In this document: piece by piece, positions 1-62,585 of the stretch | How the letters are laid out: each line of letters begins with the position of its first letter | How positions within the stretch are numbered: position 1 is the stretch's first letter | Source of the DNA: Gemmatimonadales bacterium | GTDB taxonomy: Bacteria > Gemmatimonadota > Gemmatimonadetes > Gemmatimonadales > GWC2-71-9 | Direction: 5' to 3' | DNA length: 64,000 nt | Assembly: GCA_965248285.1 (NCBI GenBank) | Contig: CBDFJJ010000013.1 | Coordinates: forward strand, 1,800,384-1,864,383 | Program-made: the position numbers and the translations under genes | Notes under the pieces: model-generated | What the model was told of the DNA's origin: nothing | What the model saw: the letters and a program-made list of their open reading frames with translations, nothing else | Database searches by the model: none

Positions 1-443
1 TCGGACGGCGAGATCATCCGCGCGATCCGGGAAGGTATTCATAGAAGCGGTCGGTCACTCGTAATCATGCCGTCCAGTTTTTTCCGGAACCTCAGTGATG
101 CCGACGTGCACGCCATCGTTGCGTACTTGCGCTCGCAACCGCCGATCGAGCCTGACACGCCGCCCAACAGATTGAACGTGCTGGGCGCCATCTTTGTCAA
201 CGTGTTCCCCATGCGCGAAGCCCAAGCGCCGGTGACCGAACCCCAGGTGGCGCCCCCGGCAGGCCCGACCGCCGAATACGGTGAGTACATGACGTCAATA
301 GCATGTGCGATCTGCCACGGTAGAGATTTGGGTGGCAATGCAGAATTCAATGCACCGGGTCTGATAGGCGCGGGCCTTACCTGGACCGAGGATCAGTTCA
401 TCGTGTTCATGCGTACGGGAGTCCGACCAGATGGCGGGGCTCC
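1..443 (+). pseudogene. c-type cytochrome, 5'-partial at window edge, cut by an IS3-family insertion
   Basis: Frame 1 is open from nt 1. SDADVHAIVAYLRS...CAICHGRDLGG...TGVRPDG aligns colinearly with the C-terminal half of the cytochrome at 10555-12788. The frame then runs into the IS end and stops at 451-453. Confidence 0.7.
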
Positions 444-472
444 TGCGCCCTAGGGTTTTCTTGGACACTTGA

Positions 473-1964: not shown

Positions 1965-3362
1965 TCAATACGGGGAGTCGGGCAAGATGATCTTGGGTCC
2001 TTCGCCTCGCTCCATAGCGTCGAGGTGAAGGAAATATTTGCCGATTCCGGCGGCGCCCTGCATGTAACCCGTTTGCGCCACCAACAGTTCGGGCTGCACG
2101 CGGTGTTCCGACTGTACCCACTTGAGACCATCACCCGATTTCGTCGAGCGGTCGAGGAGATCGCTCGTCAGTCGGTCGGCGTACGCGCGGTACTCTGACC
2201 TCTTCGTAAGGCGTTCGATGGTGAGAAAATAGTCGCCAATACCGGCCGATCCCCCGCACTGGCTGACGTTTTCCCAGAACCCGGGTGTCCGGACCTCGGG
2301 CGTGCCGGTCCCCATGATACCCCGCGCACCCATGTGCACCCAACGCATCCACTCATCGTCGCCTGTTGCCACGGCAAGTTGGTGAAACAGCCTGTTGGTC
2401 CCCACGGGCCCGTGACACCACGCCAGATAATAAAGATCCTCCCCTAGCGGAGAGTTGTGGTAAATGAGATAGGTGTCGTCCTTCACCGTAGCGATCGATT
2501 TGAGGTACGCGGCACCGGCAAGAGCAGCGTCGAGAAACTCAGATTTTCGCGTGCGCGAGTACAACGCTGCCAAGAAATAGCAAATGCCGGCGGTGCCGTG
2601 CGAAAAGTTTGGCATCTCGCGTGCGTAGCCGGGATAGATGTCCCATTTGAGACCGGCGTCCGTGGGAATCGCTCGCTCGACCAGACGTTGTCCCGCCAGT
2701 TCCGCTAGCTCGACGGCTTCAGGATCACCCATCATCCGATCGGCATACAGGAGGCCAAGACCCGTTCCAGCCGTACCGCTTACGATATCATTGACTTCTC
2801 TGCTCGCTCCGTCACCGTTGCCGACCGGCCACGCCCTGCCCGCTCCGGCCGGTCGTGCGTTCCGCTTGAGGAGGGACAGGCACCGCACGGCGTGGCGACG
2901 GTATTGGTCGCGCCCCGAAGCCCTATACGTCTCCTCCATGACAAACGCCAAACCCGCCAGACCCGTGTACAAACCTGCCGAAGAGTCTCGCTCGCGACCG
3001 ACCTCGTCGGCGAGGTGATCCGCCCCGGCCATGGCATCGGTCAACACCGCGGTGTCGCCGGTGGTATGGAACAGTTCGAGTAGAAACGTCACCACTCCCG
3101 GACTATGGGTGTAAAGCGTATTGCCCAACGAGTTCGGGTCATTTGGATCCGCCGGCCACGTTACACCGTGATCGGTGGTGGCTCGCGAAAGCTCGATCCA
3201 CTTGGCGGCTTGCAAGGCGGCCTCGAGGTAGGGGCGTTCCGAACTCCGCCTGAGATCGCTAAGGCGCGGTAGGCGGAATGCGGGAAAACCAGCGACGGCC
3301 ATTGCTGCACCAACGCCACCCTTCACGAAATCACGTCGTGGTAGCGACGTTTCGTAGCACAT
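1965..3362 (-). CDS. LanC-like (lanthionine synthetase C-like fold) protein with a Tat-type signal
   Basis: LanC-type motifs FSHGTAGICYFL, WCHGPVGT and SQCGGSAGIGDYF. Start chosen at MCYETSLPRRDFVKGGVGAAMAVAG (an RR-x-F-V-K Tat motif). The longer track ORF to 3614 reads through the hairpin repeat. Confidence 0.65.
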   Translation of the reverse strand: MCYETSLPRRDFVKGGVGAAMAVAGFPAFRLPRLSDLRRSSERPYLEAALQAAKWIELSRATTDHGVTWPADPNDPNSLGNTLYTHSPGVVTFLLELFHTTGDTAVLTDAMAGADHLADEVGRERDSSAGLYTGLAGLAFVMEETYRASGRDQYRRHAVRCLSLLKRNARPAGAGRAWPVGNGDGASREVNDIVSGTAGTGLGLLYADRMMGDPEAVELAELAGQRLVERAIPTDAGLKWDIYPGYAREMPNFSHGTAGICYFLAALYSRTRKSEFLDAALAGAAYLKSIATVKDDTYLIYHNSPLGEDLYYLAWCHGPVGTNRLFHQLAVATGDDEWMRWVHMGARGIMGTGTPEVRTPGFWENVSQCGGSAGIGDYFLTIERLTKRSEYRAYADRLTSDLLDRSTKSGDGLKWVQSEHRVQPELLVAQTGYMQGAAGIGKYFLHLDAMERGEGPKIILPDSPY

Positions 3363-3663: not shown

Positions 3664-3848
3664 CATCTGGGGTCGGGTGGGATGGTCTTCGTCGACCGAG
3701 ATGGATTGCGGGAGAACAGGAACTGTGGTTGTCCCTTCAATCACTTACCCCGAAATTCCCGGAAGACCATAAAAAAGCGGGGGCGTTGCCGCCCCCGCCG
3801 TGTGCTGTCCTGCCCAACGCCTCGTTGGTTTAGAGCGGCTCTCGACAG

Positions 3849-4502
3849 CTAGATGGCGAAGGCGAGTACGACGACACCGGTCACGCCCACCGTGACCCCG
3901 GCCGCCCGAATCGCCATGTTGCGCCACGGTAAGGATCGACCGTCGAGCCGCTTGACAACTGTAAACGCCCCCATCGCCACCGCATACTGGATCACGACTA
4001 GCCCCAGCAGATAGGCCCCGAGCGGCGCGGGCTCCGCTCCCACAACCGACTCGCCATAGGCGTACCCGTGAAAGGCTCCGGCGAGCGCGAATCCGACGCC
4101 GAGCAGCAACGGGCGGACCTTCTTGTCCGCGGCGAGGAACGCACCGGCGCCGACGACTGAAACGGCGACCGCGATCTCGCCGCCCGGAACGGTGACGCCC
4201 ATCAGGTGAATCACCAAGCCTACTAGGGACGCGACCAGAAAAACCAACGGAAAGATGCGCCCTTGTCCGAAAGCCGCCGCGATGATGCCGACCGCGAGGA
4301 TGAACGCGAGATGGTCGGGGCCGATGACTGGATGGGCAAGACCGGAGAGGAGTCCGGCGAAAAAGGTCCGAGGCACCTCACCACCGGTCATGTGATGTGC
4401 CATGGCTGCCTTGGGCAGACACAAGAGCACGAGCGTGAGCGTCGCGAGGACTTTGCGAACTCCAGCGGTTCGCCCCAACCATGTGTGATAGTGAGAACCC
4501 AT
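3849..4502 (-). CDS. hupE: HupE/UreJ-family Ni/Co transporter
   Basis: Signal peptide, then HHMTGG and GLAHPVIGPDHLAFILAVG motifs and multiple glycine-rich TM segments. It lies last in the nitrile hydratase gene string. Confidence 0.8.
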   Translation of the reverse strand: MGSHYHTWLGRTAGVRKVLATLTLVLLCLPKAAMAHHMTGGEVPRTFFAGLLSGLAHPVIGPDHLAFILAVGIIAAAFGQGRIFPLVFLVASLVGLVIHLMGVTVPGGEIAVAVSVVGAGAFLAADKKVRPLLLGVGFALAGAFHGYAYGESVVGAEPAPLGAYLLGLVVIQYAVAMGAFTVVKRLDGRSLPWRNMAIRAAGVTVGVTGVVVLAFAI

Positions 4503-4598: not shown

Positions 4599-5003
4599 TC
4601 AGTGCGACTGACGGAGTACGATGGGCTTTCCGTGAGGCGTGTGCCGGTAGGCGTCGGCCCAGGCTTCCTTGCGCACCAGGAGCTCCGGAGAATCGGCCAT
4701 GCCCTTTTCCGTAACGAGGCGCTCGAGGGCGGCCACCCAGTGATGGTAGTACTGCGAGCCATCGTCCGGTTCGCCGCGGGCCGCGGCCGCCGCGAGCTCG
4801 TCGGCGAGCGCGCTCGCCCACTCCTTCCAGGTGAAGCGTCCCTGCTCCGACAGTTTGACGGCGAGGGCGAACGCCTGCGCCTGCCACGGCTCGGCGAACA
4901 CCGGTCCCTCCTCATCGCGAGGGAGCGGCGGCAGCGCCTCGAGTCGTTCGGCCTCGACGCGTCCGTCAGGCCGGCTCAAGGTAATCCTCCCACATGTCGA
5001 CAT
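4599..5003 (-). CDS. Nitrile hydratase accessory/activator protein (beta-subunit-like)
   Basis: PVFAEPWQAQAFALAVKLSEQGRFTWKEWASAL...YYHHWVAALERLV is typical of Co-NHase activators. The start is uncertain: ATG at 5003 or TTG about 20 nt downstream. It overlaps the nthB stop. Confidence 0.75.
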   Translation of the reverse strand: MSTCGRITLSRPDGRVEAERLEALPPLPRDEEGPVFAEPWQAQAFALAVKLSEQGRFTWKEWASALADELAAAAARGEPDDGSQYYHHWVAALERLVTEKGMADSPELLVRKEAWADAYRHTPHGKPIVLRQSH

Positions 5004-5616
5004 ATACCGCGTCGCGCGCGGCGGCCCGGTCGCCCCATAGCTCCCGCCCGGCGAAGTGCACGGTGTACACGTGCTGTGGCCGGTCGCCGAGTCTCTGGCC
5101 GTTCTCGTCGGTGTCCTGCAGGGAAAAGATGCCGTGGTCCCGGACCACCGTGCCGTACTTGCCGCGCGTGTAGCGTGGTAGCCGTGTGTGACCACGCGGA
5201 TGCATGTTGCGCGCGCGCACGCGCTGCTCGGGGCGGAACCCCGGGTTCGCCGGGGGGTCCCGCCGGTCGGACCGAGGCGACTCCGGGAGCAGTGTCGGGT
5301 GCGGGCGGTTGGGGTCGGCCTTACCGCTCTCGAGCTCGGCGGTCGTGACGAGGTCGCTCTTGAGCAGCCGGTCCACGAGCAGCTTTTCCAACCAACGCTC
5401 GTAGTAGGACATGCGCAGGTAGTCGTCGGCCTGGATGCTTTCGAGCGCGAAGCGGAAGCTTCCCCAGTTGCGGCCTCTGCTCCAGGGGCCGAACCAGGTC
5501 TTCAGGAGGAGCCCGAGGACGCGGCCTTCCCACGGCTCGTGAAACACAGGCTCGTTTGGCTCGGCCTCGATGGGGCCCATGCCGTCCATCCCGCCCATAT
5601 CGTGAATGGTGTTCAT
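4966..5616 (-). CDS. nthB: Nitrile hydratase beta subunit
   Basis: [16 protein letters not shown]...[15 protein letters not shown] is the canonical NHase-beta N-terminus. ATGA overlap with nthA. Confidence 0.9.
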
Positions 5617-6344
5617 GCGTCGCCTCCCGCTTGCGGCGCTGCAACCTTCGCCACGCCAATCATCGAGTCGCGCGTAACGATTTCGGCGAGATCGGCTTCG
5701 GTCATGTTCTCGGTGCCGGCCGGTCGTTGCGGTAACACGAGGTAGCGGATCTCGGCCGTGCTATCCCACACGCGTAGCTCGACGTCGTCGGGGATCTCGA
5801 GTCCGAACTCGCGACACACCCCGCGCGGATCGATCACCGCGCGCGAGCGGTACGGCGCGGACTTGTACCACACCGGTGGTAGCCCGAGCGTCGACCACGG
5901 ATAGCAGGAGCAGAGCGTGCACACCACGAGGTGGTGGACCTCCGGCGTGTTCTCCAGAACCACCATGTGGTCGCTCTGGGCGCTGCCGTATCCGAGCTCT
6001 GCGATCGCCTCGGTGGAGTCGGTCAGGAGGCGCGCCTTGTAGGCCGGATCGACCCAGGCGCGCGCGACGACCTGGGCGCCGTTGCGGGGACCGACCTTGT
6101 TCTCGTAGCGATCGACCACCTGATCGAGCTCTGCTGGGTCGACCATCTCCTTCTCGACGAGCAGGGATTCGAGGGCTCTGACCCGCAGTGCGATATCGGA
6201 CGGCACCGCCTGGTGCTCGTGATCGTGGGTGGATGGTTGCTCTGCGGCCACGGCTTCCCCCTCTGCGGCGAGCGCCGCGGCGGTCACGGCGGCACCTTTC
6301 AGGAACTTGCGCCGGCCAAGCCCGCCTTCTTCGGATTTTGCCAT
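5613..6344 (-). CDS. nthA: Nitrile hydratase alpha subunit, cobalt type, with an N-terminal twin-arginine signal-like extension
   Basis: Active-site [10 protein letters not shown] (Thr indicates Co type). The N-terminus is [29 protein letters not shown]. The conserved body begins at about [15 protein letters not shown]. Confidence 0.9.
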
Positions 6345-6447
6345 GTCTGAGACTCCGGACCGGAAAGAGTCGAGTATACATCTCTACCGGCCGGGCGCAA
6401 CAACACCTGATGTGCGAGCCGCAACTAAACGATCTTCACTTCCTCTA

Positions 6448-7860
6448 GAGGTATTGTCAAATGTTGTGGATCGGTGAGTGATCAAGCGGCGACCTTCCGA
6501 TCCGTGTTCTCTTTGTCAGTTTCCTGCATACCATCTTTGAATTGTTCTCCTGCCAACACCAGGGGGAGAAGTTCTGGAGCGTTGAGTTTCCGCCAACGTT
6601 GCTGCGCCATCTCCAACAGCTTGAACGCCATCGTCAGCCCTTTGCTCCGCGAGCCCGCTCCCTTGGTCACGCGCTGTCGTAACCGGACCGTCGCGAAGGC
6701 AGACTCGATCACGTTCGTCGAACGGATATGTTTCCAATGCTCGGCCGGAAAATCAAAATGGCTGTACAGGTGCTCCTGGTCCCGCGTGAGCGAGGCGACC
6801 GCCTTGGGATACTTGGCCGCATACGCGGTGGCGAAACGCTCGACCAGCGCCTCGGCCTCCGCACGCGACTCCGCATACATCATCTCGCGCAACACCCGCT
6901 TCGCCGCCGGCTGCAAACGTTTCGGAAGCTTGTCCAACACGTTGGCCATCCGGTGCACCCAGTCGCGCTGCTGCCGCGTCGCCGGCCACACCTCCCGCAC
7001 CGCTGCCCAGAACCCCAACGCGCCATCCCCAATCGCCAGCACCGGGGCCCGCATCCCCCGACGCTTCAGATCGCGCAACACCGCCAACCAGCTCTCCGTG
7101 CTCTCCCGATAGCCGTCCTCCACCGCGATCAGCTCTTTCGTCCCATCCGCCCGGGCGCCCAGCATCACCAGCGTACACAGCCGGTCGGCCTCGAGGCGAA
7201 TGTTGAAGTGGATCCCGTCGACCCAGACGTACACATACTCCCGATCACGCAGATCACGCTGGCGAAACGCCTGGTATTCCCCCTCCCACGCCGCCGTCAA
7301 TCGCGTGATCGTCGTCGGGGACAAGCCTGATGCGTCCTCACCCAACAAGATCGGCAACGCCTCGCGAAAATCTCCCGTCGACAGACCGCGCAGATACAAC
7401 ACCGGCAAGACCTCCGCCACCTTCGGCGACCGCCGCATATAGGGAGGCAAAATCTTGCTCGTGAACTGCGCCCGCATACGACGGTCATGCACCCGTGGCG
7501 CGGTCACCGTGACCGTACCAGCACCCAGCGTCACCTTGCGGGGACGGGCTTTGCCATTGCGCACCACCAGGGCGCGGCCCTCTCCGTCTCGCTCAATCCG
7601 ATATCGCTCGACATACTCGGTCACTTCCGCGTCCAACGCACTCACCAGCATCCGCCGAGCTCCCTCTCTGGCAAGCTCGTCCAGGTCTGCGAACAGTCCG
7701 TTCCCTTTGCTCTCAGACGCATTCTCTATTATCCTCAACATCGGTGGCGTGTCCTTTCTCCGGTCGTCACAACCGGATCTCGTGTACGTTTCAACTGACT
7801 ACACGAAAGGATACGCCGCCTTTCTCATTCCTCCAATCCACAACTTTCGAAAATAACTCC
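6448..7860 (-). mobile_element. IS256-family insertion sequence, copy 1
   Basis: The terminal IRs are gaggtattgtcaaatgttgtggat and the reverse complement of atccacaactttcgaaaataactcc. A perfect 8-bp direct repeat TTCCTCTA lies at 6440-6447 and 7861-7868. Confidence 0.85.
6482..7741 (-). CDS. IS256-family (Mutator-type) transposase
   Basis: 419 aa with WVDGIHFNIR...AIGDGALGFW...STNVIESAF, the characteristic Mutator/IS256 blocks. Confidence 0.9.
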   Translation of the reverse strand: MLRIIENASESKGNGLFADLDELAREGARRMLVSALDAEVTEYVERYRIERDGEGRALVVRNGKARPRKVTLGAGTVTVTAPRVHDRRMRAQFTSKILPPYMRRSPKVAEVLPVLYLRGLSTGDFREALPILLGEDASGLSPTTITRLTAAWEGEYQAFRQRDLRDREYVYVWVDGIHFNIRLEADRLCTLVMLGARADGTKELIAVEDGYRESTESWLAVLRDLKRRGMRAPVLAIGDGALGFWAAVREVWPATRQQRDWVHRMANVLDKLPKRLQPAAKRVLREMMYAESRAEAEALVERFATAYAAKYPKAVASLTRDQEHLYSHFDFPAEHWKHIRSTNVIESAFATVRLRQRVTKGAGSRSKGLTMAFKLLEMAQQRWRKLNAPELLPLVLAGEQFKDGMQETDKENTDRKVAA

Positions 7861-8201: not shown

Positions 8202-9536
8202 TCAGAGCTGAGACGGAGAGCGGACTAGTCTTCCGCCCCTTATCACGTAGATCGGGTGACGCAAGTTGCTGATGTCGACAGTGGGGTCAGATGGATACAC
8301 GACCAGATCCGCGACCTTACCCTGCTGGACAGTGCCCAATCGGTCCCCGATGCCAAGCGCCTCTGCACCAGTCGATGTGGCTGCGGTCAGAGCTTCCAGC
8401 GGGGTGAGCCCCACCACTTCGACCAGCATTTCGAGCTCGCCGAATAGTGCGAGGCGTCCTCCCGACGGATGGTCGGTTCCAGCCGCAATCGCTATACCCA
8501 TGCGGTGGGCCAACCTCGTCACCTGGATCGCCCACTCAGACGCCTCATCACTTACGGCGCCTGCTATTGTCGAGACCGTCGCATCGAGGATGATGCGGCG
8601 GTCACGGATCGCTTCAAGGACGCCGACAACCGCAGGCTGGTCCGGCGACACCGCCGAGTATGGTGCAGGCGGACCGAACGGGTTGAAGGGTTCCACGGCA
8701 TTGTAGCGTTCTGGCAGCTGCTCGACACCCTCCCATACGAGCAGAGCGGCGTGAGAAATCACGTCTATGCCCGACGAGACGACGATGGAAGGGCGGGTTG
8801 GGAACACCACGGGGTGACTCCAAACACGCATACCCTGGCGATGCGCCTCTGTCGCGATATCGCGAATCACTTCAGCCGATAGATTGGAGTAGATCTTGAT
8901 CCCGCTGGCACCGCTGTTCTTGGCGTTACGAACCGCGGACTCGAGGTCGGTTGAGTCAGTCACGGCTAGGAACCAAGGGAGGCTGCCAGTCCCAGGAACC
9001 CCCATGACGCGAGGGTCACTCGCGAAGAAGACCGGATCGGCCCAAAACGCGGACGAGAACAGCCGTGGGACCTGTGCCGAGTCAGCCCCGGCTCTGAGTT
9101 GGCCGTGGAGGTCGGCGCAACACGCCATGTCGCGGACCGAGGTTATGCCGACACCCAGGAGTGAATCGAGGTGAACGCGAAGTGTGCCCTCGTCCGTGGG
9201 AAGATGCACATGGGAATCGATGAGGCCCGGAGTGACGTAATGACCGGCGACGTCTAGAGCTTGGCTGTCCCCAGGACCCGATGCGCGAACAGCGGTGATG
9301 ATCCCGTCGCGTATCTCGATCGTCTGCCCCGATACGGGAGCCCCCCCGAGCCCGTTGATGATCGTAACGTTCGACAGGACTAGGTCCGGTAGGCCCGTAG
9401 CTACGCGCTCGGCAGAGGAACACCCGCCGATCCACGCGCTAAGTAGTGCGATCCACGCGCTGACTAGCAGTGCGATCCACGCGGACGACCAAGTCGGACG
9501 TCTCATGTTTGCTTGCCAATGTGTGTAACGATCCAC
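8202..9536 (-). CDS. Amidohydrolase-family protein (metal-dependent hydrolase), probable lipoprotein
   Basis: GLIDSHVHLP metal motif, a C-terminal GKVADLVV block and an IGGC lipobox after the hydrophobic N-terminus. The exact start is uncertain. Confidence 0.8.
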   Translation of the reverse strand: MDRYTHWQANMRRPTWSSAWIALLVSAWIALLSAWIGGCSSAERVATGLPDLVLSNVTIINGLGGAPVSGQTIEIRDGIITAVRASGPGDSQALDVAGHYVTPGLIDSHVHLPTDEGTLRVHLDSLLGVGITSVRDMACCADLHGQLRAGADSAQVPRLFSSAFWADPVFFASDPRVMGVPGTGSLPWFLAVTDSTDLESAVRNAKNSGASGIKIYSNLSAEVIRDIATEAHRQGMRVWSHPVVFPTRPSIVVSSGIDVISHAALLVWEGVEQLPERYNAVEPFNPFGPPAPYSAVSPDQPAVVGVLEAIRDRRIILDATVSTIAGAVSDEASEWAIQVTRLAHRMGIAIAAGTDHPSGGRLALFGELEMLVEVVGLTPLEALTAATSTGAEALGIGDRLGTVQQGKVADLVVYPSDPTVDISNLRHPIYVIRGGRLVRSPSQL

Positions 9537-9901
9537 CAGACGTTTCCAACGGGATCTTTGACGCCACCATAGCGATCACCGTGCGGATAATTGTCAGGCT
9601 TCAGTACTGAGGTGGCACCTGCTGCTAGGGCTTTGTTGTAGGTGACATCGCAATCGTTTACATAGAGATACATCATGGCAGGCATTGGCCCGATCTCATC
9701 CATCGGCTCGCCCATCATCACGACCGAATCACCGATCTTCACTTCTGCATGCTTGACGCTCCCATCCTCCCGATATTGCGGATCGCCTCTCGACTCGGCG
9801 TCGAACACTTGCTGAAGGAACTGGATAAGGGTTGAAACGCTTTCTACCACCAAGTAGGGCGTGATCGTGTTGAGCCCAAAGGGATTCCGTTCTTCTGTCA
9901 T
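9503..9901 (-). CDS. VOC/glyoxalase-family protein (PhnB-like)
   Basis: ITPYLVV...HAEVKIGDSVVMMGE...GGVKDPVGNVWWI pattern. Confidence 0.7.
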   Translation of the reverse strand: MTEERNPFGLNTITPYLVVESVSTLIQFLQQVFDAESRGDPQYREDGSVKHAEVKIGDSVVMMGEPMDEIGPMPAMMYLYVNDCDVTYNKALAAGATSVLKPDNYPHGDRYGGVKDPVGNVWWIVTHIGKQT

Positions 9902-9912
9902 GCTAGTCTACC

Positions 9913-10125
9913 TCACACGGTGATGACGACTTTTCCCTTCGCGTGTCCGTCCTGCAGATAGCGGATTGCGTCGGGGACCTCGCTCAGCGGGTAGGTTCTG
10001 TCGATGGGCGGCGTGAGCTTTCCGGATTCGAGGAGCTCCCTCAAGAGAGCCATCGATTCCTTGTGTTCTCCAGAACTGTCGCGCCTTAGTGGGAGCCTGA
10101 CCCGATGATCTCTACTGCTGCCCAC
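9913..10125 (-). pseudogene. C-terminal remnant of a zinc-type alcohol dehydrogenase/quinone oxidoreductase
   Basis: Only the tail LLESGKLTPPIDRTYPLSEVPDAIRYLQDGHAKGKVVITV* is present. No Rossmann or catalytic domain lies upstream. Confidence 0.6.
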
Positions 10126-10153: not shown

Positions 10154-10525
10154 CTAGACGTGCTGATCGACAAGTATTGGGTTCCCATCGGGGTCGACTG
10201 CGACAAAACTCGCTGGCCCTGTGGTTGTCTCGTCGGCTTCGGTCATTAGCTGCACACCTTGTGCTTTCAACTGGCGCTGTAGATCACGAACGTCGGTGAA
10301 TGTCTCGAGGTTGCTTGCGTTGCTGTCCCAGCCCGGATTGAAGGTCATGGTGTTTTTTTCGATCATGCCCTGAAAAAGGCCGATTGCGTGATCGCCGTTC
10401 TTTAGAATTAACCAGTTCTGCGAGGCATCTCCGGCGAAGACTTTGAAACCAAACTTTTCGTAGAAAACCCTCGAGGCTTTAATGTCTTTGACAGCCAAGC
10501 TGATTGAAAACGCGCCGAGTTCCAT
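10154..10525 (-). CDS. VOC/glyoxalase-family protein
   Basis: MELGAFSISLAVKDIKASRVFYEKFGFKV...VAVDPDGNPILVDQH. Start taken at the internal Met. Confidence 0.7.
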   Translation of the reverse strand: MELGAFSISLAVKDIKASRVFYEKFGFKVFAGDASQNWLILKNGDHAIGLFQGMIEKNTMTFNPGWDSNASNLETFTDVRDLQRQLKAQGVQLMTEADETTTGPASFVAVDPDGNPILVDQHV

Positions 10526-11212
10526 GATTCGCTCCTTTAGAAGTAACACTGCCGCTATTCACTGTTAAGCGACGCGATGTATCGCCACATAGCTGCCAGT
10601 TCATCATCCGTCATGTTGGCGTAGATATTCCAGGGCATGAACTCCTGGTTGAGCTCTTTGCCGTAGGGGGTGACGCCGGTGCGTATGGTGGTGACGAACT
10701 GCTCCTCCGACCACCCTCCGGGAGCTGCGTAACCCGCTATGGCGGGACCAGGAGGCATACTTGGGTCAAGCGGGGGACCACCTTTCAGGTCAGATCCATG
10801 GCACATCGAGCATAGCGTGATGGACATCAGGTACTGTCCGTATTTGGCCGTTGCTTCCATTTCAGGCATCTCGACAAAAGGCGCACCATGGTCAATCGCC
10901 TCAGCTGGGATAAACGGAATGGCCTCACTGTCAAAGAGGCCGAGGGCAAAGAGGATCCGCCCCAACGGCAATAACCTTCGGTTCGGGATCTCCTTATCTA
11001 CAGGCGGTACGCTCTTGACGTAGGCAATGACCGCGCCAAGGTCTTCCTCGCTTAGGTTGTTGAAGACGTCCGAATGCATGATCATCAATCCTCGACCCTC
11101 CGGGTTGACGCCATGGCGGATGGCGCTGACATAATCGGCGTCGGTGTAAGTGGTAGCCACTCCACCCTGACCAGAAGTCAAGTTAGGTGCGTAAACAATT
11201 GCCATCATGGGT

Positions 11213-12529
11213 GGGAGTATCAGGAATTTTGTGTTTGTGAGCCATACTATGTACCTGCACTTTGGAGGCACGTATGGCGCGACACAAACGGTCGATCCCC
11301 CCGGAGTTGGTGGACCAACTGCTCGATGGCATCGACCCCCAGAAGGTCTTTGAATCAGACGGGCTCGTTGACGAGCTGAAGCGGGCGTTGGCTGAGCGGA
11401 TTCTGGACGCCGAGATGGACGTGCATCTCGGCGGTGAGGAGGAGCACGCTCGAGGGAACCACCGTAACGGCCACAGCAAGAAGACGGTCCTGACCGACTC
11501 GAGCGCTCTCGAACTTTCAATTCCCCGCGACCGTCATGGCCGGTTTGCGCCCCAATTCATCGAGAAGTACCGACGTCGGTTCCCCGGCTTCGACGAGAAG
11601 ATCATCGCGTTGTACGCCCGCGGCATGAGTACGCGCGACATCCAAGCTCACGTCCGGGAACTCTATGGCTTGGAGATTTCTCCCGACCTGGTCTCCGCGG
11701 TCACCGATTCGGTACTTGACGAGGTCAAGGCGTGGCAGAGCCGGCCGCTGGAGAGCGTCTACGCCGTTGTCTATTTCGACGCGCTGCGCGTGAAGATCCG
11801 CGACGAGGGGACGGTGCGCAACAAGGCCGTCTATCTGGCGATCGGCATTCGGTGTTCGGGCTACAAGGAGATCCTGGGGCTGTGGATCGAGCAGACCGAG
11901 GGCGCGAAGTTCTGGCTCAAGGTCATGACGGAGCTGCGCACCCGTGGCACCCAGGACATCCTGGTAGCCGTCGTGGACGGACTCCGAGGCTTTCCGGAGG
12001 CCATCGAGTCGGTGTTCCCCAACGCTCGCGTCCAGACGTGCATCGTGCACCTGATTCGCCACTCCCTGCAGTTTGCCGGATGGAAGGAGCGCAAACCGCT
12101 AGCGGCAGCCCTCAAACAGATCTACCGCGCCGACACCGCGGAGGCGGCCCTTCACCAACTCGAGGAATTCGAGCAGGGCCCCTGGGGTCGCAAGTATCCG
12201 ACCGTCGCGCAGAGTTGGCGGCGGCAATGGGAGCAGGTGATTCCGTTTCTTGCATTCGCCCCTGAGATCCGGAAGATCATCTACACGACCAACGCGATCG
12301 AGAGTCTACACAGCCAGGTCCGCAAGTCGGTACGCACCCGCGGGCACTTCCCTAGCGATCAAGCCGCTACGAAGCTAATCTGGCTCGTATTACGAAACAT
12401 CGAAGCTACGTGGAAACGCCCACCGGTATCATGGGCGAAAGCTCGAAGCCAGTTCGCCATACTTTTCGGCGACCGTTTCAAGATTACTGACTGATGGAGA
12501 GGCTCACACACAAAATTTCCTACACGCCC
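11213..12529 (+). mobile_element. IS256-family insertion sequence, copy 2 (different sequence from copy 1)
   Basis: Imperfect ~30-bp IRs: gggagtatcaggaattttgtgtttgtgagcc and the reverse complement of ggctcacacacaaaatttcctacacgccc. A perfect 8-bp TSD TCATGGGT lies at 11205-11212 and 12530-12537. Confidence 0.9.
11262..12494 (+). CDS. IS256-family (Mutator-type) transposase
   Basis: 410 aa with LDAEMDVHLG...YFDALRVKIR...VVDGLRGFPEAI...TTNAIESLH blocks. Confidence 0.9.
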   Translation: MEARMARHKRSIPPELVDQLLDGIDPQKVFESDGLVDELKRALAERILDAEMDVHLGGEEEHARGNHRNGHSKKTVLTDSSALELSIPRDRHGRFAPQFIEKYRRRFPGFDEKIIALYARGMSTRDIQAHVRELYGLEISPDLVSAVTDSVLDEVKAWQSRPLESVYAVVYFDALRVKIRDEGTVRNKAVYLAIGIRCSGYKEILGLWIEQTEGAKFWLKVMTELRTRGTQDILVAVVDGLRGFPEAIESVFPNARVQTCIVHLIRHSLQFAGWKERKPLAAALKQIYRADTAEAALHQLEEFEQGPWGRKYPTVAQSWRRQWEQVIPFLAFAPEIRKIIYTTNAIESLHSQVRKSVRTRGHFPSDQAATKLIWLVLRNIEATWKRPPVSWAKARSQFAILFGDRFKITD

Positions 12530-14808: not shown

Positions 14809-16371
14809 TCACATGACCAGCCTCTCCGCCAACGCATACAGCAGATCGACGTAGGCTCGTTCAATATCTCCCAGCCCCGCAATCCCCGACCCCGGCCGCG
14901 GCTCCACCACCATGTACTCGTTCGGCGCGTGCGCGCCGGAGCCGTGACCAAGTCCCGAGAAAACGAGCGGAAGCCGCAACCGCTCGGTGAACTGATAGAA
15001 CGGCGCGCTTCCCGCCAACCGCGGAGAGACGGTGGGTGTCTTACCATATTTATTGAATACGCTGATGGCGGCTTGCACCACGGGGGCGTCGACCGCCGTC
15101 TGCGCGGCGGGGTAGCCGGAGAGCTTCCTTATCACGATGTCCTGAAAACCCCGCTCGTCGAGATGGCGGCGGATCTTGGCGAGGGCGGCGTCGGGGGTGA
15201 GGCCGTAGGGCAGTCGTGAATCCACCTTTGCCGTGGCCCGGTGGGGCAAGATGGTCTTTACCCCTTCCTCTGTATAGCCACTCCAGATGCCGTCGATGTT
15301 GAGCGTGGGGTGATAAAGATACCGCAGGATGGCGTCGCGTCCGGTGATGCCGTCGATCCAGCGCTCGACCCTCAGCAGGCGCTGCCTCCCTTCGTCGTTC
15401 CAGCCGGTGACCAGGCCGTTGATGAGGCGTTGTTCCTCGATGGTCGGCGGCCGTACGTCGTCGTAGTATCCGTCGATGGTGATGGTGTTGCCATCGGTCG
15501 AGGTAAGCGTTGCCAGCGCCTGCACCAGCCGCCACGCCGGCGCGTCGACGATGGCTTTGTACGAGCCGTGTATCTCCGCTTGGGTCGGGCCGCCCCACGC
15601 ACCGCCGGTCGACTCCATCTCGGTGTACAGGATGCCCTTCACACCGAGGCTCATGCTCACGTCACCACTTGGCGATTGCGCATTGAACGGGAACATCACG
15701 CCGTCGGCCGTCCGCAGGCGATCCACGAACCGATCCACCAACTCGTGATAATGCGGCGATCCCAACTCCTCTTCGCCTTCGGCGAGCACCATGAGGTTGA
15801 CCGGCAACGTACCGTTCACGGCGATGATCGATTCGATGGCGTTGAGAAAGGCGCGCTCGGGCCCTTTTTGATTCGTCGCTCCCCGCGCCATCAACACCCT
15901 GCCGAGTTCGTGGTCGATCACTCGCGCCTCGAACGGTGGGGATTCCCAGTCCTCGGGATTCACGGGCTGCACGTCGTACATGAGGTAGACCATCAACGTG
16001 CGTTCGGCGCCGGCGTCGTAGTATCCCCACACACCGGGATGCCCCGATGTCGGCACCAACTGAGTCTCGCTGAACCCCAACGCCTCGAGGTCACTGCGTA
16101 GTAGTTCGGCCATCTCGGTAATCCCGATGTTCTGCGCGCTCACCGAAGGCTGCCGCAACCACCGCTGCAGGTTCGCGAGGTGCACGTCGGCATGATCGGC
16201 GATGTGGCGGTAGATGGCGTCGTGGTCCCCGGCGTAAGCCCGGATCGTGGACGCGTCGAATTGCTCGTCGGTGGTGAAACGGAAAGATTTTTGGGCGGAG
16301 ATCGCGGAGGGAGATGCTGCTAACCCCGCGGCTAGCGTCAATGCCATAGTGATGCCCGTAGTGTTTGTCAT
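14809..16371 (-). CDS. M20-family metallopeptidase (dipeptidase-like), secreted
   Basis: YDVQPVNPEDWESPPF, ARGATNQKGP and LAEGEEELGSP blocks. Start taken at MTNTTGITMALTLAAGLAASPSAISA (signal peptide). Confidence 0.8.
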   Translation of the reverse strand: MTNTTGITMALTLAAGLAASPSAISAQKSFRFTTDEQFDASTIRAYAGDHDAIYRHIADHADVHLANLQRWLRQPSVSAQNIGITEMAELLRSDLEALGFSETQLVPTSGHPGVWGYYDAGAERTLMVYLMYDVQPVNPEDWESPPFEARVIDHELGRVLMARGATNQKGPERAFLNAIESIIAVNGTLPVNLMVLAEGEEELGSPHYHELVDRFVDRLRTADGVMFPFNAQSPSGDVSMSLGVKGILYTEMESTGGAWGGPTQAEIHGSYKAIVDAPAWRLVQALATLTSTDGNTITIDGYYDDVRPPTIEEQRLINGLVTGWNDEGRQRLLRVERWIDGITGRDAILRYLYHPTLNIDGIWSGYTEEGVKTILPHRATAKVDSRLPYGLTPDAALAKIRRHLDERGFQDIVIRKLSGYPAAQTAVDAPVVQAAISVFNKYGKTPTVSPRLAGSAPFYQFTERLRLPLVFSGLGHGSGAHAPNEYMVVEPRPGSGIAGLGDIERAYVDLLYALAERLVM

Positions 16372-16507
16372 GGGGCTGCCTTCATGGATGGTGGTTGGGG
16401 TTGAAGGTAATCGCGGATTATGGGACGTACTAGGACGAACCAAGACGGTCGAAGACGGTCTGGAACGGGGGACACGGGGCACACGTTGACCAGAGATTGA
16501 TATGATA

Positions 16508-23343: not shown

Positions 23344-26300
23344 ATGAAGAATCGCATGATCGTAATCCGCTCTCTTCTCGCCGGGGTTTTCGCGCTTTCT
23401 ATCGGTGCGGTGGGCGGAGGGGCCGTGGCGTCAGCGCAAGAGGAGCCATCGAAGCCCGAGGCAGGGCTCCCGCTCGAAACCACGCGCGTCATTGAGTTCG
23501 ACACCGACGAGGGGACGTGGATGAGCGTGGACGTCTCCCCGGACGGTACGCAACTGGTCTTCGATCTGTTGGGCGATCTGTATATGCTGCCCATCACCGG
23601 GGGCACGGCCCAGCGCATCACTCAAGGCCCGGCATTCGATTTCCAACCTCGTTTTTCTCCCGACGGCAGGCACATCGCATTCGTGAGCGACCGGAACGGT
23701 GACGAAAGTCTGTGGTTGGCGAATGCCGACGGGAGCGATCCGCGCGTCATTGTGACCGACACGCGCAGCCTAGTGGGTTCCCCGGCCTGGTCGCCGGACG
23801 GGGAGTTTCTGGCGGTGCGCAAGGGCGTGTCGAGCCTGGCCCTGAACGAGCTGTGGCTGTACCACAAGGACGGCGGAACGGGGATCCAGATCACGGAGGG
23901 AATAGCACCCATGCGGTCCGTGGCCGGACCCGAGTTCTCACCGGATGGAGCGTACATCTATTTCTCGAGCAGCCCGCAGGGACACCGCTACAACGCAGAC
24001 CTCGGACATTACCAGGTCAGCCGCTACCATCGCGACACCGGCGATATCGAGACGATTACCGGGAACTATGGCGGTGGCTTGAGGCCGGTGCTCTCGCCCG
24101 ACGGTCGCACGCTCGCGTACGTCGCCCGAGACGAAACCCACTCGGCCCTGCGCATCCGTGACCTCGAGACGGGGCGCGAAAAGCGGCTGGCCTATCCGCT
24201 CGACCTCGACGAGCAAGAGGGCTTCGCGTGCCGTGATCTCTTTCCCGGTTACAGCTTCACGCCGGACGGCCGGGGAATCGTGATCTCGTTCGGTGGGAAG
24301 CTTCACCGCGTCGACGTCACTACTGGTGAAGCGGCACCGATTCCGTTCAACGCGCACGTCCGCCAAGAGCTGGGGCCGCTCGTCCACTTCGAGCGGGAGA
24401 TCGACACCGGACCGGTGCGCGTCCGCCAGCTCCGCTGGGCGAACCAGTCTCCAGACGGAACGCGTCTGACGTTCAGTGCTGTTGGGCAAGTCTGGGGCAT
24501 GGACCTGCCGGGCGGCACACCCCGCCGATTGACTGAGACGAGTGAAAGGGAGTACGCGCCCAGCTTCTCGCCCGACGGCAACTGGATCGTTTACGTCAGC
24601 TGGACCGACGAGGTGGGCGGGCACGTGTGGAAAGTGCCGGCCGACGGAGGAGCTCCGGTCCAGCTGACTCGGGTGTCGGCTTTCTATCATCGTCCCACCT
24701 GGGCCCCGGATGGAAGCAAGATCGCGTTTGTCCAGGGGTCGGCCCGGGCCTGGCTCGCTGAGGATCCCAGCGATGTGTTGCAGATCCGTTGGGTCGATGC
24801 CAATGGCGGTGAAACGCACCACGTCATGAATTCGCCGCTATCGGCGCAAGCCCGCGTTCCGTGGCAGCAACTCACTTTCAGCGGCAATGGGCAGCGGATT
24901 TACTATCTGGACTACGAGTCGCCCCCGCCGGGGCTGGACTATCCTCCGGGGACGCTGACCCTTCACTCTGTTCAGCTGGATGGCGGAGATCGGCGCCAGC
25001 ATGCCCAGCTGGTCGGCGCCGACCAAGCGGCTCCTTCTCCCGACGGGAAGTGGGTGACATTCATCGTTAGGGGTGACGCGTACTTAGCGCCGCTGCCCCG
25101 CGTCGGCGACGTCGTCACCCTGGACCTGCGAACGCCCGTGGTGAACATCCGGCGGCTGACGAACGAGGGGGCGGGGGATGCTCGGTGGGAAGACGGTGGA
25201 CGGACCCTCACGTGGCGCTTTGCGAACCGCTTCTATCGCATCGGGCGGGAGGACGCCTTACTCGCAAAGAGCGTGGATGAGGTTAATGCCACCGAGTTCG
25301 TGATCGACTTGCAAATCCCCCGTCCCCGGCCCCGAGGGACGATCGCCCTGCGCAACGCCCGCATCGTCACGATGCGCGGCGACGAGGTTATCCCACGTGG
25401 CGACATCTTGGTGGAGAACAACCGCATTCAGGCGGTCGGGGCAAGCGGTTCCGTGTCAATCCCTGATGACGCCCAAGTGATCGACGTCAGTGGTAAGACG
25501 ATCGTTCCTGGGTTCATCGACATGCACGACCACCTCCGCTTGCCCGGTGAGGTCATTCCGGAAAGAAGCTGGACCTTGGCCGCACATCTCGCCTACGGGG
25601 TGACCACGGGTTTCGATCCCGGAGCCGACACGAAGGCTATTTTCGCCAACGCCGAGATGGTCGAGGCCGGCCGGCTGCGCGGCCATCGGGTCTACAGTAC
25701 GGGCGTGCCGCTACACCCGGGCACCGCGAAGATCGAAAGTTTGGAGGACGCCCGCCACGTTACCCGGCAATTCAGCCGCCATGGGGCCATCTTCCTCAAG
25801 GAGTACTTGCAGCCGCGTCGCATTCAGCGACAGTGGCTGGCCATGGCCGCACGCGAGGAGGGTGTCTCGATCACGGCTGACGGAGGCGGCGATCTCTTCT
25901 TCGACATCACGCATATTCTCGACGGCTACACGGGATACGAGCACAGCATGCCCACCGTGCCGCTCTACCGCGACGTCATCGAGCTGATGGCGCGAAGCCA
26001 GACGTACTACAGCCCCACTCTCGGGGTAGAGCTAGTCGGTCCGTGGGGTCAGCACTACTTCCGGCAGCACACCAACCTCCACGACGACCCCAAGCTGCGT
26101 CGCTTTACGCCCAGGGAGGTCCTCGACCGACGGACCCATCGTGGGCTGCGGGTTCGGGATGAGGACTTCCGAGTCGTTCAGGTAGCCGCGCAGGCGGCAA
26201 AGCTCGTCCGTAGCGGCGGCTATGCGGTGCCTGGAGGACACGGTGAGCAGCAGGGCATCGCGACTCACTGGGACATCTGGTTCCTCGCCATGGGTGGACT

Positions 26301-26592
26301 GACGGCCCATGAGGCGTTGAGGGCAGCGACGCGTCATCCGGCAGAGCGGCTCGGGCTGGAAGCGGATCTGGGCTCCTTGGAGTCCGGAAAGCTCGCCGAC
26401 CTCGTCGTTCTCAACAGTAATCCGCTCGATGACATTCAGCGGACCACCGACATCCTCTACGTCATGACGAACGGTGAGCTTTTTGAAGGAGAGACCCTCG
26501 ATCAGATCTGGCCCGAGCGGAGAAAATTCGGCGAGTTCTATTGGGAGACCGAGGCGAAGGCGCTCGACGAACGAAGAGACACTCGCCGGTAG
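23344..26592 (+). CDS. TolB-like beta-propeller / amidohydrolase fusion protein, secreted
   Basis: Repeated SPDG(x)xxAF(V) PD40-type blades, then the C-terminal amidohydrolase blocks PGFIDMHDH and GKLADLVVLNSNPLDDI. Confidence 0.85.
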   Translation: MKNRMIVIRSLLAGVFALSIGAVGGGAVASAQEEPSKPEAGLPLETTRVIEFDTDEGTWMSVDVSPDGTQLVFDLLGDLYMLPITGGTAQRITQGPAFDFQPRFSPDGRHIAFVSDRNGDESLWLANADGSDPRVIVTDTRSLVGSPAWSPDGEFLAVRKGVSSLALNELWLYHKDGGTGIQITEGIAPMRSVAGPEFSPDGAYIYFSSSPQGHRYNADLGHYQVSRYHRDTGDIETITGNYGGGLRPVLSPDGRTLAYVARDETHSALRIRDLETGREKRLAYPLDLDEQEGFACRDLFPGYSFTPDGRGIVISFGGKLHRVDVTTGEAAPIPFNAHVRQELGPLVHFEREIDTGPVRVRQLRWANQSPDGTRLTFSAVGQVWGMDLPGGTPRRLTETSEREYAPSFSPDGNWIVYVSWTDEVGGHVWKVPADGGAPVQLTRVSAFYHRPTWAPDGSKIAFVQGSARAWLAEDPSDVLQIRWVDANGGETHHVMNSPLSAQARVPWQQLTFSGNGQRIYYLDYESPPPGLDYPPGTLTLHSVQLDGGDRRQHAQLVGADQAAPSPDGKWVTFIVRGDAYLAPLPRVGDVVTLDLRTPVVNIRRLTNEGAGDARWEDGGRTLTWRFANRFYRIGREDALLAKSVDEVNATEFVIDLQIPRPRPRGTIALRNARIVTMRGDEVIPRGDILVENNRIQAVGASGSVSIPDDAQVIDVSGKTIVPGFIDMHDHLRLPGEVIPERSWTLAAHLAYGVTTGFDPGADTKAIFANAEMVEAGRLRGHRVYSTGVPLHPGTAKIESLEDARHVTRQFSRHGAIFLKEYLQPRRIQRQWLAMAAREEGVSITADGGGDLFFDITHILDGYTGYEHSMPTVPLYRDVIELMARSQTYYSPTLGVELVGPWGQHYFRQHTNLHDDPKLRRFTPREVLDRRTHRGLRVRDEDFRVVQVAAQAAKLVRSGGYAVPGGHGEQQGIATHWDIWFLAMGGLTAHEALRAATRHPAERLGLEADLGSLESGKLADLVVLNSNPLDDIQRTTDILYVMTNGELFEGETLDQIWPERRKFGEFYWETEAKALDERRDTRR

Positions 26593-28820: not shown

Positions 28821-28925
28821 GAGTGCCTCCGGTTGGTCGTCATTTGCTGGTTGGCGTAGATGATAATGATAGACCGCGGGGTCGGACGACTGCAAATCGG
28901 CGTGAGAAGGGAGAAGGCCCTAGAC

Positions 28926-33100: not shown

Positions 33101-33481
33101 CAGCAGCACGGACTCTCCAGCCACTGGGAGATCTGGATGGCGGCTTCGGCCCTGGGGGCCATGGGTGCATTAGAGCTCGCCACGACTGCGGGCGCGTATT
33201 TCCTGGGCACCGAGCCGGACATAGGCTCCGTCTCGGTGGGGAAGCTTGCGGATCTCGTGGTCCTGAACTCCAACCCGCTGGAGAACATCCGCAACACGAC
33301 CGACATCCTCTACGTCATGAAGAGTGGACGGCTGTACGACGGGGACACACTCGACGAGATCTGGCCCCGCCAGAAGCCGTACGGCGACCGGCCATGGGTT
33401 AATGCAGACGCGCTGAGAGCCGGGCCTCGGCCCATAGACTACTGGGATCGCGAGGAAAAGGCGTCAGGGAATGGCCGATAG
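30155..33481 (+). CDS. TolB-like beta-propeller / amidohydrolase fusion protein, secreted (paralogue)
   Basis: Colinear with 23344-26592. Has PGFIDMHNHH and GKLADLVVLNSNPLENI. Confidence 0.85.
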   Translation: MPSRAKVFVVCLGVAAIGSAATGDLLQAQAGQAAWDVTKPRGETVEIDFTTQEGTWMSVDISPDGRWIVFDLLAHIYRVPAEGGEAEVLTQNSGVAINVHPRYSPDGQHIAFVSDRGGQNNLWVMEADGSNPRAVFEDPDVRIFEPTWTPDGQYILARRRAFTGQRETGIWMYHRDGGEGVQLIGPDVAGASWPSASADGRYVYFHMSTPGQEVYHIARNPLQGAYNIRRMELASGKITAVTSGEPSRQYRLSSGGAYGGEVSPDGRWLAFGRRIPDGTITYKGHEFGPRTALWLRDLETGAERVVMDPIEMDMTEGGKNLRVLPGYNWAPDGRSLVLSQGGRLRRVDVASGRVTRIPFTARVHRVISEQAYAPFRISDEPFEVKFTRWQTAASDGRSLAFQAVGKIWIMNLPDGKPRRLTNDSFEPFEYAPAWSPDGQWLAFTSVDEIGGGHLWKVPATGGTPEQLTSEYGEYMHTIWSPDGREIMVVKGAGATARTRTMAHNPWYDIVVFPAAGGPGDVVTRVSVPTLPTRTQFVRPSYGPDGRIFYPQLGEARGDSTTLISVRRDGSDLREHLVFLHADEVVPSPDGKWVAFNEGDNVYLAPLPLWGTGAEAVYVNRKQGKVPVKQLSREGGIFPGWRDSNTAEFGSGARYFAHDVESGKTDTVHIDLRLPRDLAQGTIALTGARILTMEHREVLESGSIVARNGRITCVGNCDTSGADRVVELRGKTITPGFIDMHNHHYREYRGIIPQKAFEASVPLAFGVTTSMDNSMWSQDVFPGAELIEAGMLIGPRTFSTGDPLYGGDAPRQNDLTSYQVAEENVNRLASWGAVSIKQYLQRRRDQRQWVAEASRKRGLMVTAQGNDLAFNLSMIMDGQTGWEHEMHYLPIYSDVAKFFGKAKAVYGQTFVTGPGPWNDEYWFQESDVWKNEKLRRWFPWQQLVPHTRRRMLRPKTDYSFAVAAQGLADIIAEGGHGSIGGHGQQHGLSSHWEIWMAASALGAMGALELATTAGAYFLGTEPDIGSVSVGKLADLVVLNSNPLENIRNTTDILYVMKSGRLYDGDTLDEIWPRQKPYGDRPWVNADALRAGPRPIDYWDREEKASGNGR

Positions 33482-56386: not shown

Positions 56387-56460
<74 letters not shown>

Positions 56461-56472
56461 GCGTCCAGCAAA

Positions 56473-56546
56473 TCGGGGCGGCCGGACTTGAACCGGCGAC
56501 CTCCTGCTCCCGAAGCAGGCGCGCTACCGGGCTGCGCTACGCCCCG
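56473..56546 (-). tRNA. tRNA-Pro (anticodon CGG)
   Basis: CGGGGCG/CGCCCCG acceptor, anticodon loop TTCGGGA, T-arm GCCGG-TTCAAGT-CCGGC. Confidence 0.9.
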
Positions 56547-56559
56547 TTCTAGACGACCT

Positions 56560-56735
56560 TCAAAGTAGTCGCCCTGTGGGCCTGCTGGTAGCGTGGCCTC
56601 CCCGGGTTTTTTCCGCCCTCGCCGGACTGGACGCCTGGCGATCGCCCTCCTTGCCGACCGTTCCGCTGCGAATGTGAAGATCGCGTTGCGGAAACGGGAT
56701 CTCAATGTCGCTTTCCTTTGAGGATGCTGGTCTCC
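56560..56735 (-). pseudogene. 3' remnant of an MscS paralogue
   Basis: Translates ...SDIEIPFPQRDLHIRSGTVGKEGD..., matching the tail of the MscS gene at 58681-59562. 56638-56730 is about 90% identical to 58652-58782. Confidence 0.6.
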
Positions 56736-56824
56736 GTCTAGCCTCCGGCTGAAGTGCATCATTTGTAAAGCATTAGCGTATAACCATTTGACCCCTTGAA
56801 CCAATAACCGAAAAGAAAACTATC

Positions 56825-58596: not shown

Positions 58597-58680
58597 CTAG
58601 ACTTCGGAAACAAACTGAAGCCAGCCCTCAGTCTTTTGACTTGGGGCTGTGGCCATGCGATCGCCCTCCATGCCGACCGT

Positions 58681-59562: not shown

Positions 59563-59575
59563 GGCCGATTCCAGA

Positions 59576-59732: not shown

Positions 59733-59738
59733 TACGAG

Positions 59739-59812: not shown

Positions 59813-59889
<77 letters not shown>

Positions 59890-60133: not shown

Positions 60134-60179
60134 CATCTCTGCCCCTCGCTGCCCCCAGCTGAATCCCGCATTCCTATTA

Positions 60180-62578: not shown

Positions 62579-62585
62579 CAGTGTT

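Follow-up and report, generated by a model that had tools for sequence, protein, structure and literature searches.

A cobalt-type nitrile hydratase operon with a predicted twin-arginine signal on its alpha subunit in a Gemmatimonadales bacterium and its relatives

To our knowledge, every characterised nitrile hydratase (NHase) is cytoplasmic, including the industrial acrylamide and nicotinamide enzymes. The cobalt type (Co-NHase) is recognised by the metal-binding motif C-T-L-C-S-C-Y, in which Thr and Tyr mark the type (C-S-L-C-S-C-T in the iron type), and iron-type enzymes use a COG0523 GTPase instead of the beta-like accessory protein. Escherichia coli hydrogenase-2 (HybO/HybC) is exported by hitch-hiking, in which a subunit with a twin-arginine translocation (Tat) signal carries a signal-less partner. 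PaoABC is likewise a Tat hitch-hiker complex (PMC4273604). The maturation pathway of the Co-NHases of Rhodococcus rhodochrous J1 and Pseudomonas putida has been outlined (PMC11672702), and a further paper treats the role of P14K, the P. putida activator, in Co-NHase maturation (PMC3680314). The subject of this report is a Co-NHase operon located at 6344-3849 (minus strand) of a 64-kb stretch of contig CBDFJJ010000013.1 from a Gemmatimonadales bacterium; the whole stretch that was analysed (64,000 nucleotides) is referred to as the window. The alpha subunit begins with an additional N-terminal segment that carries a twin-arginine motif conserved in relatives, and the enzyme is probably assembled in the cytoplasm and then exported by the Tat pathway with the beta subunit hitch-hiking, as judged from the sequences. 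Neither Co-NHases nor Tat hitch-hiking is new in itself; the novelty lies in their combination and in how large and broad the clade is in which it is found.

Operon layout and enzyme identity

Four co-directional genes, in the order alpha, beta, accessory gene and hupE, form an operon between a TATACT promoter-like element and an intrinsic terminator. The alpha precursor (5613..6344, minus strand; 243 aa) was identified by the equivalog model TIGR01323 (nitrile_alph; 301.2 bits, cutoff 249.85), by PF02979 (E 4e-89) and by alignment to 3qxe; the closest solved structure is the P. putida Co-NHase (3qxe/3qz5, E 2e-93). The Co-type metal-binding motif is present in this subunit and in 120/120 of its best homologues, and the full catalytic motif that an earlier note on this DNA had described was borne out by the protein search and the family models. 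The beta subunit (4966..5616, minus strand; 216 aa) scored 189.2 bits with TIGR03888 (cutoff 152.2) and, in the alignment to 3qxe_B, keeps the segments FR…, YYE.WL and GHTR.PRYTRGK; these Arg- and Tyr-bearing segments presumably contact the oxidised cysteines. The accessory protein (4599..5003, minus strand), of the self-subunit-swapping chaperone type, reached 101.2 bits with TIGR03889 (cutoff 46) and is of the beta-like kind. The last gene of the operon (3849..4502, minus strand) encodes a HupE/UreJ-family Ni/Co permease of 217 aa (PF04955, 115 bits) with a Sec-type signal of its own (…LLCLPKAAMA/HHMTGG; the slash marks the cleavage site). The profile searches thus placed beta, accessory protein and HupE as the earlier note had placed them, and on these matches the operon is assigned to the cobalt-type NHases.

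The alpha stop codon and the beta ATG share the four letters ATGA. For the accessory gene, TTG 4979 is the probable start (126 aa, 14-nt overlap with beta): 126 aa is the length called in its relatives, and the TTG is preceded, at a distance of 5 nt, by GGGAGGA; the alternative start, ATG 5003, would give 134 aa and a 38-nt overlap. The ATGA overlaps reported earlier for both junctions therefore hold for alpha/beta, but not for beta/accessory, where the overlap is 14 or 38 nt. One related lineage with Tat-type alpha subunits has, 3′ of the accessory gene, another beta-like gene of full length (L087/L088:9898-10593; 231 aa, TIGR03888 210 bits).

A GGAG ribosome-binding site (6353..6356, minus strand) lies 8 nt ahead of the alpha ATG at 6344, and the promoter-like element (6373..6400, minus strand; TTGCGC, 16 nt, then TG-TATACT) lies about 30 nt 5′ of this start. 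By alignment, an element resembling a −10 box, TGTATACT, was found to be conserved in the window and in six related loci (L081, L084, L089, L090, L091 and L092). In the same loci TGTATACTCGAYTCC lies ∼30 nt 5′ of the alpha start (6373-6400, minus strand, in the window), with TTGCGCCCGGCCGG ahead of it in three of them (the window, L081 and L089). This conserved element probably serves as the promoter of the operon and may be a regulatory site as well. No promoter was called by a scan for consensus sigma-70 sequences, which missed the element because its −35 hexamer matches at only 3/6 positions. At the other end of the operon, a terminator scan identified a strong intrinsic terminator, a 10-bp GC-rich stem followed by TTTTTT (3776..3799, minus strand).

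The N-terminal extension and its conservation

From residue 36 on, the window alpha is 69% identical to the P. putida Co-NHase alpha. The alignment begins at residue 35-36 of the window protein and residue 3 of the 211-aa P. putida chain, so that 34-35 N-terminal residues are additional; the earlier claim that the segment is extra with respect to a characterised Co-NHase was confirmed in this way. Homologues from reference genomes that lack the Tat-type segment (Tat-less homologues, for example L003) start at the equivalent His-rich segment, and the start of the predicted mature alpha, at about A34/E35 with the His-rich sequence THDHEHQ, coincides with that of the cytoplasmic homologues.

The predicted Tat signal peptide (residues 1-34; 6243..6344, minus strand, with the RR codons at 6309-6314) is made up of a polar n-region, G10-R-R-K-F-L-K16, an Ala-rich stretch and a c-region, EGEAVAA, with small residues at −3/−1. 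The putative signal-peptidase site is A31-V32-A33 or V32-A33-A34, and A-G-A/Q-Q is the commonest cleavage context in relatives. The twin-arginine signal model TIGR01409 scored 19.5 bits on residues 10-27 (cutoff 16.7) and was matched at E ≤ 0.01 by 36/65 family members; two Tat-less NHase alphas used as controls gave no match with it (2/2). A formate-dehydrogenase Tat-region model (formate_TAT) matched alpha residues 1-43. The mean Kyte–Doolittle value of the hydrophobic (h-) region is 1.77, within the Tat range, and h-regions of at least 13 residues were counted in 86/118 relatives. In an AlphaFold2 model built from a 26-sequence alignment the catalytic body folds, and residues 1-50 have a predicted local distance difference test (pLDDT) score <50 with a lone helix at 14-27; a disordered N-terminus with a single helix is the picture expected for a detachable signal peptide. 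The partner proteins carry no signal, as had been proposed earlier: the whole of beta (residues 1-216) can be aligned to residues 1-219 of 3qxe_B, which has no signal, and the accessory protein has no hydrophobic N-terminus and aligns from residue 1 to signal-less homologues.

Translation from the upstream start is supported by comparison of 10 related loci, in which the ATG/GTG start is conserved, the GG and A/G columns of the GGAG site are invariant and the spacing to the start codon is fixed. The in-frame GTG at V32, at which the earlier note had placed a possible downstream start, is replaced by GAC, GCA or GGG in relatives. Codon-position counts over codons 1-35 indicated that constraint is weak, which is what a signal peptide would lead one to expect; these counts are not decisive alone.

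The best 120 homologues were drawn from a collection of 5.8 billion proteins, and 117/120 bear an RRxF[LIM]-type extension of equal length; the exceptions are one mis-called upstream start, one protein without a signal and one with HR for RR. A 65-sequence alignment, extending down to 61% identity, takes in four or more phyla or classes (Acidobacteriota, Chloroflexota, Steroidobacteraceae and Alphaproteobacteria); R11 and R12 never vary in it, F14 is kept in at least 90% of the sequences, and the remaining peptide drifts. The conservation of the RR motif for which the earlier note had suggested a search was thus found. In P0102, a cluster of 7 sequences, GHREFL replaces GRREFL inside an otherwise RR-invariant subclade; this replacement of Arg means that either targeting has been lost naturally or the sequence is in error.

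In a scan of GTDB with one genome per species, the best of the matches listed is 68% identical to the window alpha. Tat-bearing alphas came from Acidobacteriota (L005, L009, L010 and L021), Bryobacterales (L004), Steroidobacteraceae (L002 and L016), Anaerolineales/Chloroflexota (L001 and L038) and an alphaproteobacterium (L008), in every case from metagenome-assembled genomes; a further ∼68 loci among the matches listed are Tat-less. When the catalytic body was used for a neighbour-joining tree, all Tat-bearing sequences came to lie in one major clade that also includes some Tat-less members, and the P. putida enzyme in a different clade. Since the Tat-bearing sequences are confined to one clade with Tat-less members, the signal would either be ancestral to the clade with later losses or have arisen inside it on a few occasions. 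Among the best 150 representatives at 50% identity, most are fragments; 6/40 of those with an intact N-terminus are Tat-like, a count that serves as a rough frequency only.

Genomic context and other genes of the window

The alpha-beta-accessory core is invariant across the related loci. A tblastn search of the related loci with the window HupE as query placed hupE 3′ of the core in three loci (the window, L089 and L094) and in its vicinity in L093, which amounts to 4/∼20 Tat-bearing contexts; by the same search it is absent from the other Tat-bearing loci and from all Tat-less loci. The linkage to hupE noted earlier is therefore recurrent, but patchy and not defining, because it is limited to these four loci, and its use as a family trait was dropped.

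Pyrroloquinoline quinone (PQQ) dehydrogenases with signal peptides of their own adjoin 5/∼20 independent Tat-bearing contexts (L087:5915-7984, with L087-88 taken as one context; L090:9761-11392; L084-86:4842-6602; L008:∼10500-12200; L093:11734-end). Within 8 kb of the Tat-less loci, among the matches listed, no such gene was seen (0/∼68); the difference between 5/∼20 and 0/∼68 corresponds to p = 4e-4 by Fisher's test, uncorrected for phylogeny. In L087, 17 nt separate the end of the PQQ gene from alpha; in L090, the PQQ gene begins 3 nt beyond the accessory gene, and in both it apparently shares the NHase operon. The two proteins are only 29% identical, which suggests that PQQ dehydrogenases were recruited independently. 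A PQQ dehydrogenase is also encoded in the window (38737-41121, minus strand); it lies 33 kb from the NHase operon and is unlinked to it.

A Cys-rich protein of ∼145-185 aa (…IRVQDGHVFVCQGCCCGN…) adjoins the NHase operon in five Tat-bearing loci (L009:9706-10146; L021:∼9654-10043; L010:∼7056-7424, minus strand; L092:5313-5870; L093:7802-8248, minus strand) and in no Tat-less locus. It is absent from the window, belongs to no Pfam family and gave only weak, sub-cutoff matches to ferredoxin models of the thioredoxin-like 2Fe-2S type (NF041613); a role as an additional maturation or redox factor is possible. No TorD/NarJ-type chaperone gene was seen in ∼12 Pfam-annotated neighbourhoods.

An IS3-family element (473-1755) on one side and an IS256-family transposase (6482-7741) on the other bracket the operon and a LanC-like gene in the window. 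Altogether the insertion sequences of the window (open reading frames (ORFs) at 473-1755, 6482-7741, 11262-12494 and 57370-58470) comprise an IS3-family pair (HTH + rve), two IS256/Mutator-family transposases and one DDE_Tnp_1 transposase. Transposases or insertion sequences also flank the operon in L081, L083, L090, L091 and L092, which points to a mobile or plastic region.

The LanC-like protein (1965-3362, minus strand; PF05147, 114 bits) has no dehydratase or kinase domain. Read from the Met at 3362 its N-terminus is MCYETSLPRRDFVKGGVGAAMAVAGFPAF, which is Tat-like in look (RRDFVKGG) and below the TIGR01409 threshold; an exported stand-alone LanC-like protein, if it is one, would be unusual. 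A link between this gene and the NHase, as for a ribosomally synthesised and post-translationally modified peptide (RiPP), was rejected: the gene lies beyond the operon terminator and is present in 0/94 related loci.

Two cytochrome c-like ORFs are found at 67-453 (plus strand) and 10555-11520 (minus strand). The former is a fragment just before the IS3 element and the latter is overlapped by the IS256-family ORF at 11262-12494, which suggests that a cytochrome c-like gene was disrupted by insertion, or duplicated. A cluster of large proteins with signal peptides includes those of two ORFs of ∼1,100 aa (23344-26592, plus strand, a PD40-propeller and amidohydrolase by Pfam; 30155-33481, plus strand, seen as an ORF only), an S9 peptidase (26733-28895, minus strand), an amidohydrolase (8202-9536, minus strand) and an M20 peptidase (14809-16482, minus strand); this set suggests a host invested in extracytoplasmic peptide and amide breakdown. 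Together with a LolA-like/MMPL gene, the many signal-peptide proteins suggest a diderm host. Seven tRNA genes (Rfam RF00005) lie in three small clusters at 56387-63495 (minus strand), among transposase and unannotated ORFs.

Export route, alternative explanations and known systems

From these observations we infer the following route, in which export, cleavage, stoichiometry and substrate are predictions. HupE, where present, would import Co2+ into the cytoplasm, as expected from its family. There the alpha precursor would bind the accessory protein and acquire cobalt, oxidation would follow at two of the three cysteines that bind the metal, and the loaded alpha would be swapped into an alpha2beta2 tetramer, a course that is established for the Co-NHases of R. 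rhodochrous J1 and P. putida. The exposed alpha signal (GRRKFLK and the Ala-rich helix) would then direct the folded, metal-loaded tetramer to TatBC, and the signal-less beta subunit would travel as a hitch-hiker. Cleavage by signal peptidase I after A31-V32-A33 or V32-A33-A34 would leave a mature alpha that begins, by alignment, at the His-rich segment, and nitriles would be hydrated to amides outside the cytoplasm, that is, in the periplasm of diderms and in the envelope or exterior of the members from Chloroflexota. The Tat route would be a sensible one because the Co(III) centre and the accessory protein work in the cytoplasm.

Several observations weigh against export. The signal described earlier as near-consensus agrees with (S/T)RRxFLK in the twin Arg, in Phe, Leu and Lys and in the Ala-rich region that follows, but the residue before RR is Gly and not Ser/Thr. 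The Pfam model PF10518 (TAT_signal) scored 16.9, below its gathering score of 22.7. The h-region of the window alpha comprises only 11 uncharged residues, against a family median of 18. Rules of the TATFIND type call for an uncharged h-region of moderate hydrophobicity that is at least some 13 residues long, and the h-regions of ten E. coli Tat signals are 15-25 residues long; by the length rule the window alpha fails and most of its relatives pass. The h-region is followed by the acidic residues E28, E30 and E35, whereas basic residues are frequent in Tat c-regions. Neither tatA nor tatC was located within the 64-kb window. Tat-less close relatives (L003, L006, L014, L031, L050 and P0008) occur within the same clade, so export is dispensable for the enzyme as such. 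Finally, the association with PQQ dehydrogenases may reflect taxa rich in such enzymes and not function.

Some of these points would fit an enzyme that stays in the cytoplasm, with a Tat-like peptide that is vestigial, a docking site for a chaperone or proof-reading factor, or a regulatory pro-peptide: the short h-region and the acidic c-region, the sub-threshold Pfam score and the interleaved Tat-less relatives are all compatible with retention, and NHase maturation already depends on a chaperone-like accessory protein. Vestigial signals, however, usually lose one Arg and the cleavage site, whereas here no variation in RR is seen across 65 sequences, and an AxA-type site is retained at constant spacing. 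The lack of a TorD/NarJ-type gene in the ∼12 annotated neighbourhoods also speaks against such a peptide on a cytoplasmic enzyme, and the neighbours that recur only with Tat-bearing operons, the PQQ dehydrogenases, are themselves exported, so that retention in the cytoplasm is regarded as unlikely. Export by the Tat pathway without cleavage, which would leave the enzyme tethered by an N-terminal anchor to the outer face of the cytoplasmic membrane in a Rieske-like manner, is considered still less probable. Cleavage is only predicted, and the acidic residues near the putative site might disfavour signal peptidase; but small residues at −3/−1 (AGA/QQ, AVA/A) are found family-wide, and an Ala-rich h-region of 11-20 residues with a mean Kyte–Doolittle value of ∼1.5-1.8 is too short, and too weakly hydrophobic, to form a stable transmembrane helix.

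A mis-assigned start would turn the signal into an untranslated leader of an ordinary cytoplasmic NHase, and translation from the GTG at codon 32 would indeed give an N-terminus like those of the Tat-less proteins. Given that relatives have GAC, GCA or GGG at this position, that the GGAG 8 nt before the upstream ATG is kept in 10 loci, that length differences preserve the frame and that RR and F are conserved down to 61% identity, this explanation is held to be very improbable. The same low weight is given to another function altogether, either as a relative of thiocyanate hydrolase or as an NHLP-type RiPP precursor tied to the LanC-like gene nearby at 1965-3362. The alpha subunit does match TIGR03887 (thiocyanate hydrolase gamma) with 184.4 bits and TIGR03793 (NHLP leader) with 64.7 bits (cutoff 50.9). 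The former score is far below its cutoff of 291.45, though, and beta is a single full-length protein of 216 aa and not split subunits; the latter match is cross-talk within the family, because the bona fide P. putida enzyme exceeds the NHLP cutoff too, and the whole catalytic domain is present in alpha.

Assembly in the cytoplasm followed by Tat export thus remains the preferred reading for the window enzyme. Far more tentative, and in our opinion rather doubtful as a whole, is its extension to the entire group: a large clade of soil-bacterial NHases (Acidobacteriota, Chloroflexota, Steroidobacteraceae, Alphaproteobacteria and the lineage of the window) could be Tat-exported as cobalt-loaded alpha2beta2 tetramers, with beta as the hitch-hiker, and could act with PQQ dehydrogenases in a periplasmic pathway, for example on hydroxynitriles from plants or microbes; nitriles would then be handled before they enter the cell.

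In full-text searches that paired nitrile hydratase with Tat or export no description of an exported NHase was found, which is consistent with the earlier note, whose author knew of no described example. In at least one database record, P0076, an automatic Pfam TAT_signal match is already present, so the feature is visible in annotation and has apparently not been discussed. No second non-corrin cobalt enzyme that is exported is known to us, although no search for one was made. If the proposed export is correct, this would be the first exported nitrile hydratase described, as far as these literature searches show, and soil microbes would transform nitriles outside the cytoplasm too. A new enzyme class and a new metal would be added to the Tat hitch-hiker complexes, and a natural test would be at hand of whether Tat export secures correct metalation, with cobalt loaded away from periplasmic Cu and Zn. 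The clade would also provide ready pairs of signal and enzyme for periplasmic or secreted whole-cell biocatalysts in which no substrate uptake is needed.

The closest characterised relative, the Co-NHase of P. putida NRRL-18668, shares with the window enzyme the cobalt site, the His-rich mature N-terminus, the gene order alpha-beta-accessory, an accessory protein of the TIGR03889 type and a beta subunit that can be aligned end to end. It differs in that its alpha starts with MGQSHTHDHHH and has no signal, whereas the window alpha has 34-35 further residues, and in that the window operon ends with the HupE permease. Thiocyanate hydrolase (2DD4) is related through its gamma subunit, which is homologous to alpha (E 5e-44), and through a cobalt centre with oxidised cysteines, but it has a three-subunit architecture; residue 9 of its chain aligns to alpha residue 38, in the mature part and not in the signal region.

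With respect to targeting, the Tat hitch-hikers (HybO/HybC, DmsAB and PaoABC) are alike in that the signal is present on one subunit only and that a metal cofactor is inserted in the cytoplasm by dedicated accessory proteins before folded export. They are redox enzymes (Fe-S, Mo, NiFe), usually with a proof-reading chaperone that binds the signal, whereas the NHase described here is a non-redox, non-corrin cobalt hydratase with a putative hitch-hiker beta subunit, and no TorD/HyaE-like gene was seen for it. E. coli NarG, a cytoplasmic enzyme, has a remnant Tat motif that is bound by NarJ, and resembles the window alpha in bearing an N-terminal twin-arginine-like peptide on a metalloenzyme subunit with chaperone-dependent maturation; its motif is degenerate and lacks a cleavage site, whereas the NHase keeps both Arg residues and an AxA site. 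In Synechocystis the Tat-exported Mn cupin MncA reportedly owes its metal to the compartment in which it folds, as is said to have been described by Tottey et al. in 2008. MncA has another fold, another metal and a single subunit, and the parallel is conceptual only; in both cases, a weakly competitive site would be shielded from periplasmic Cu and Zn by a protein that folds and takes up its metal in the cytoplasm before it leaves by the Tat pathway.

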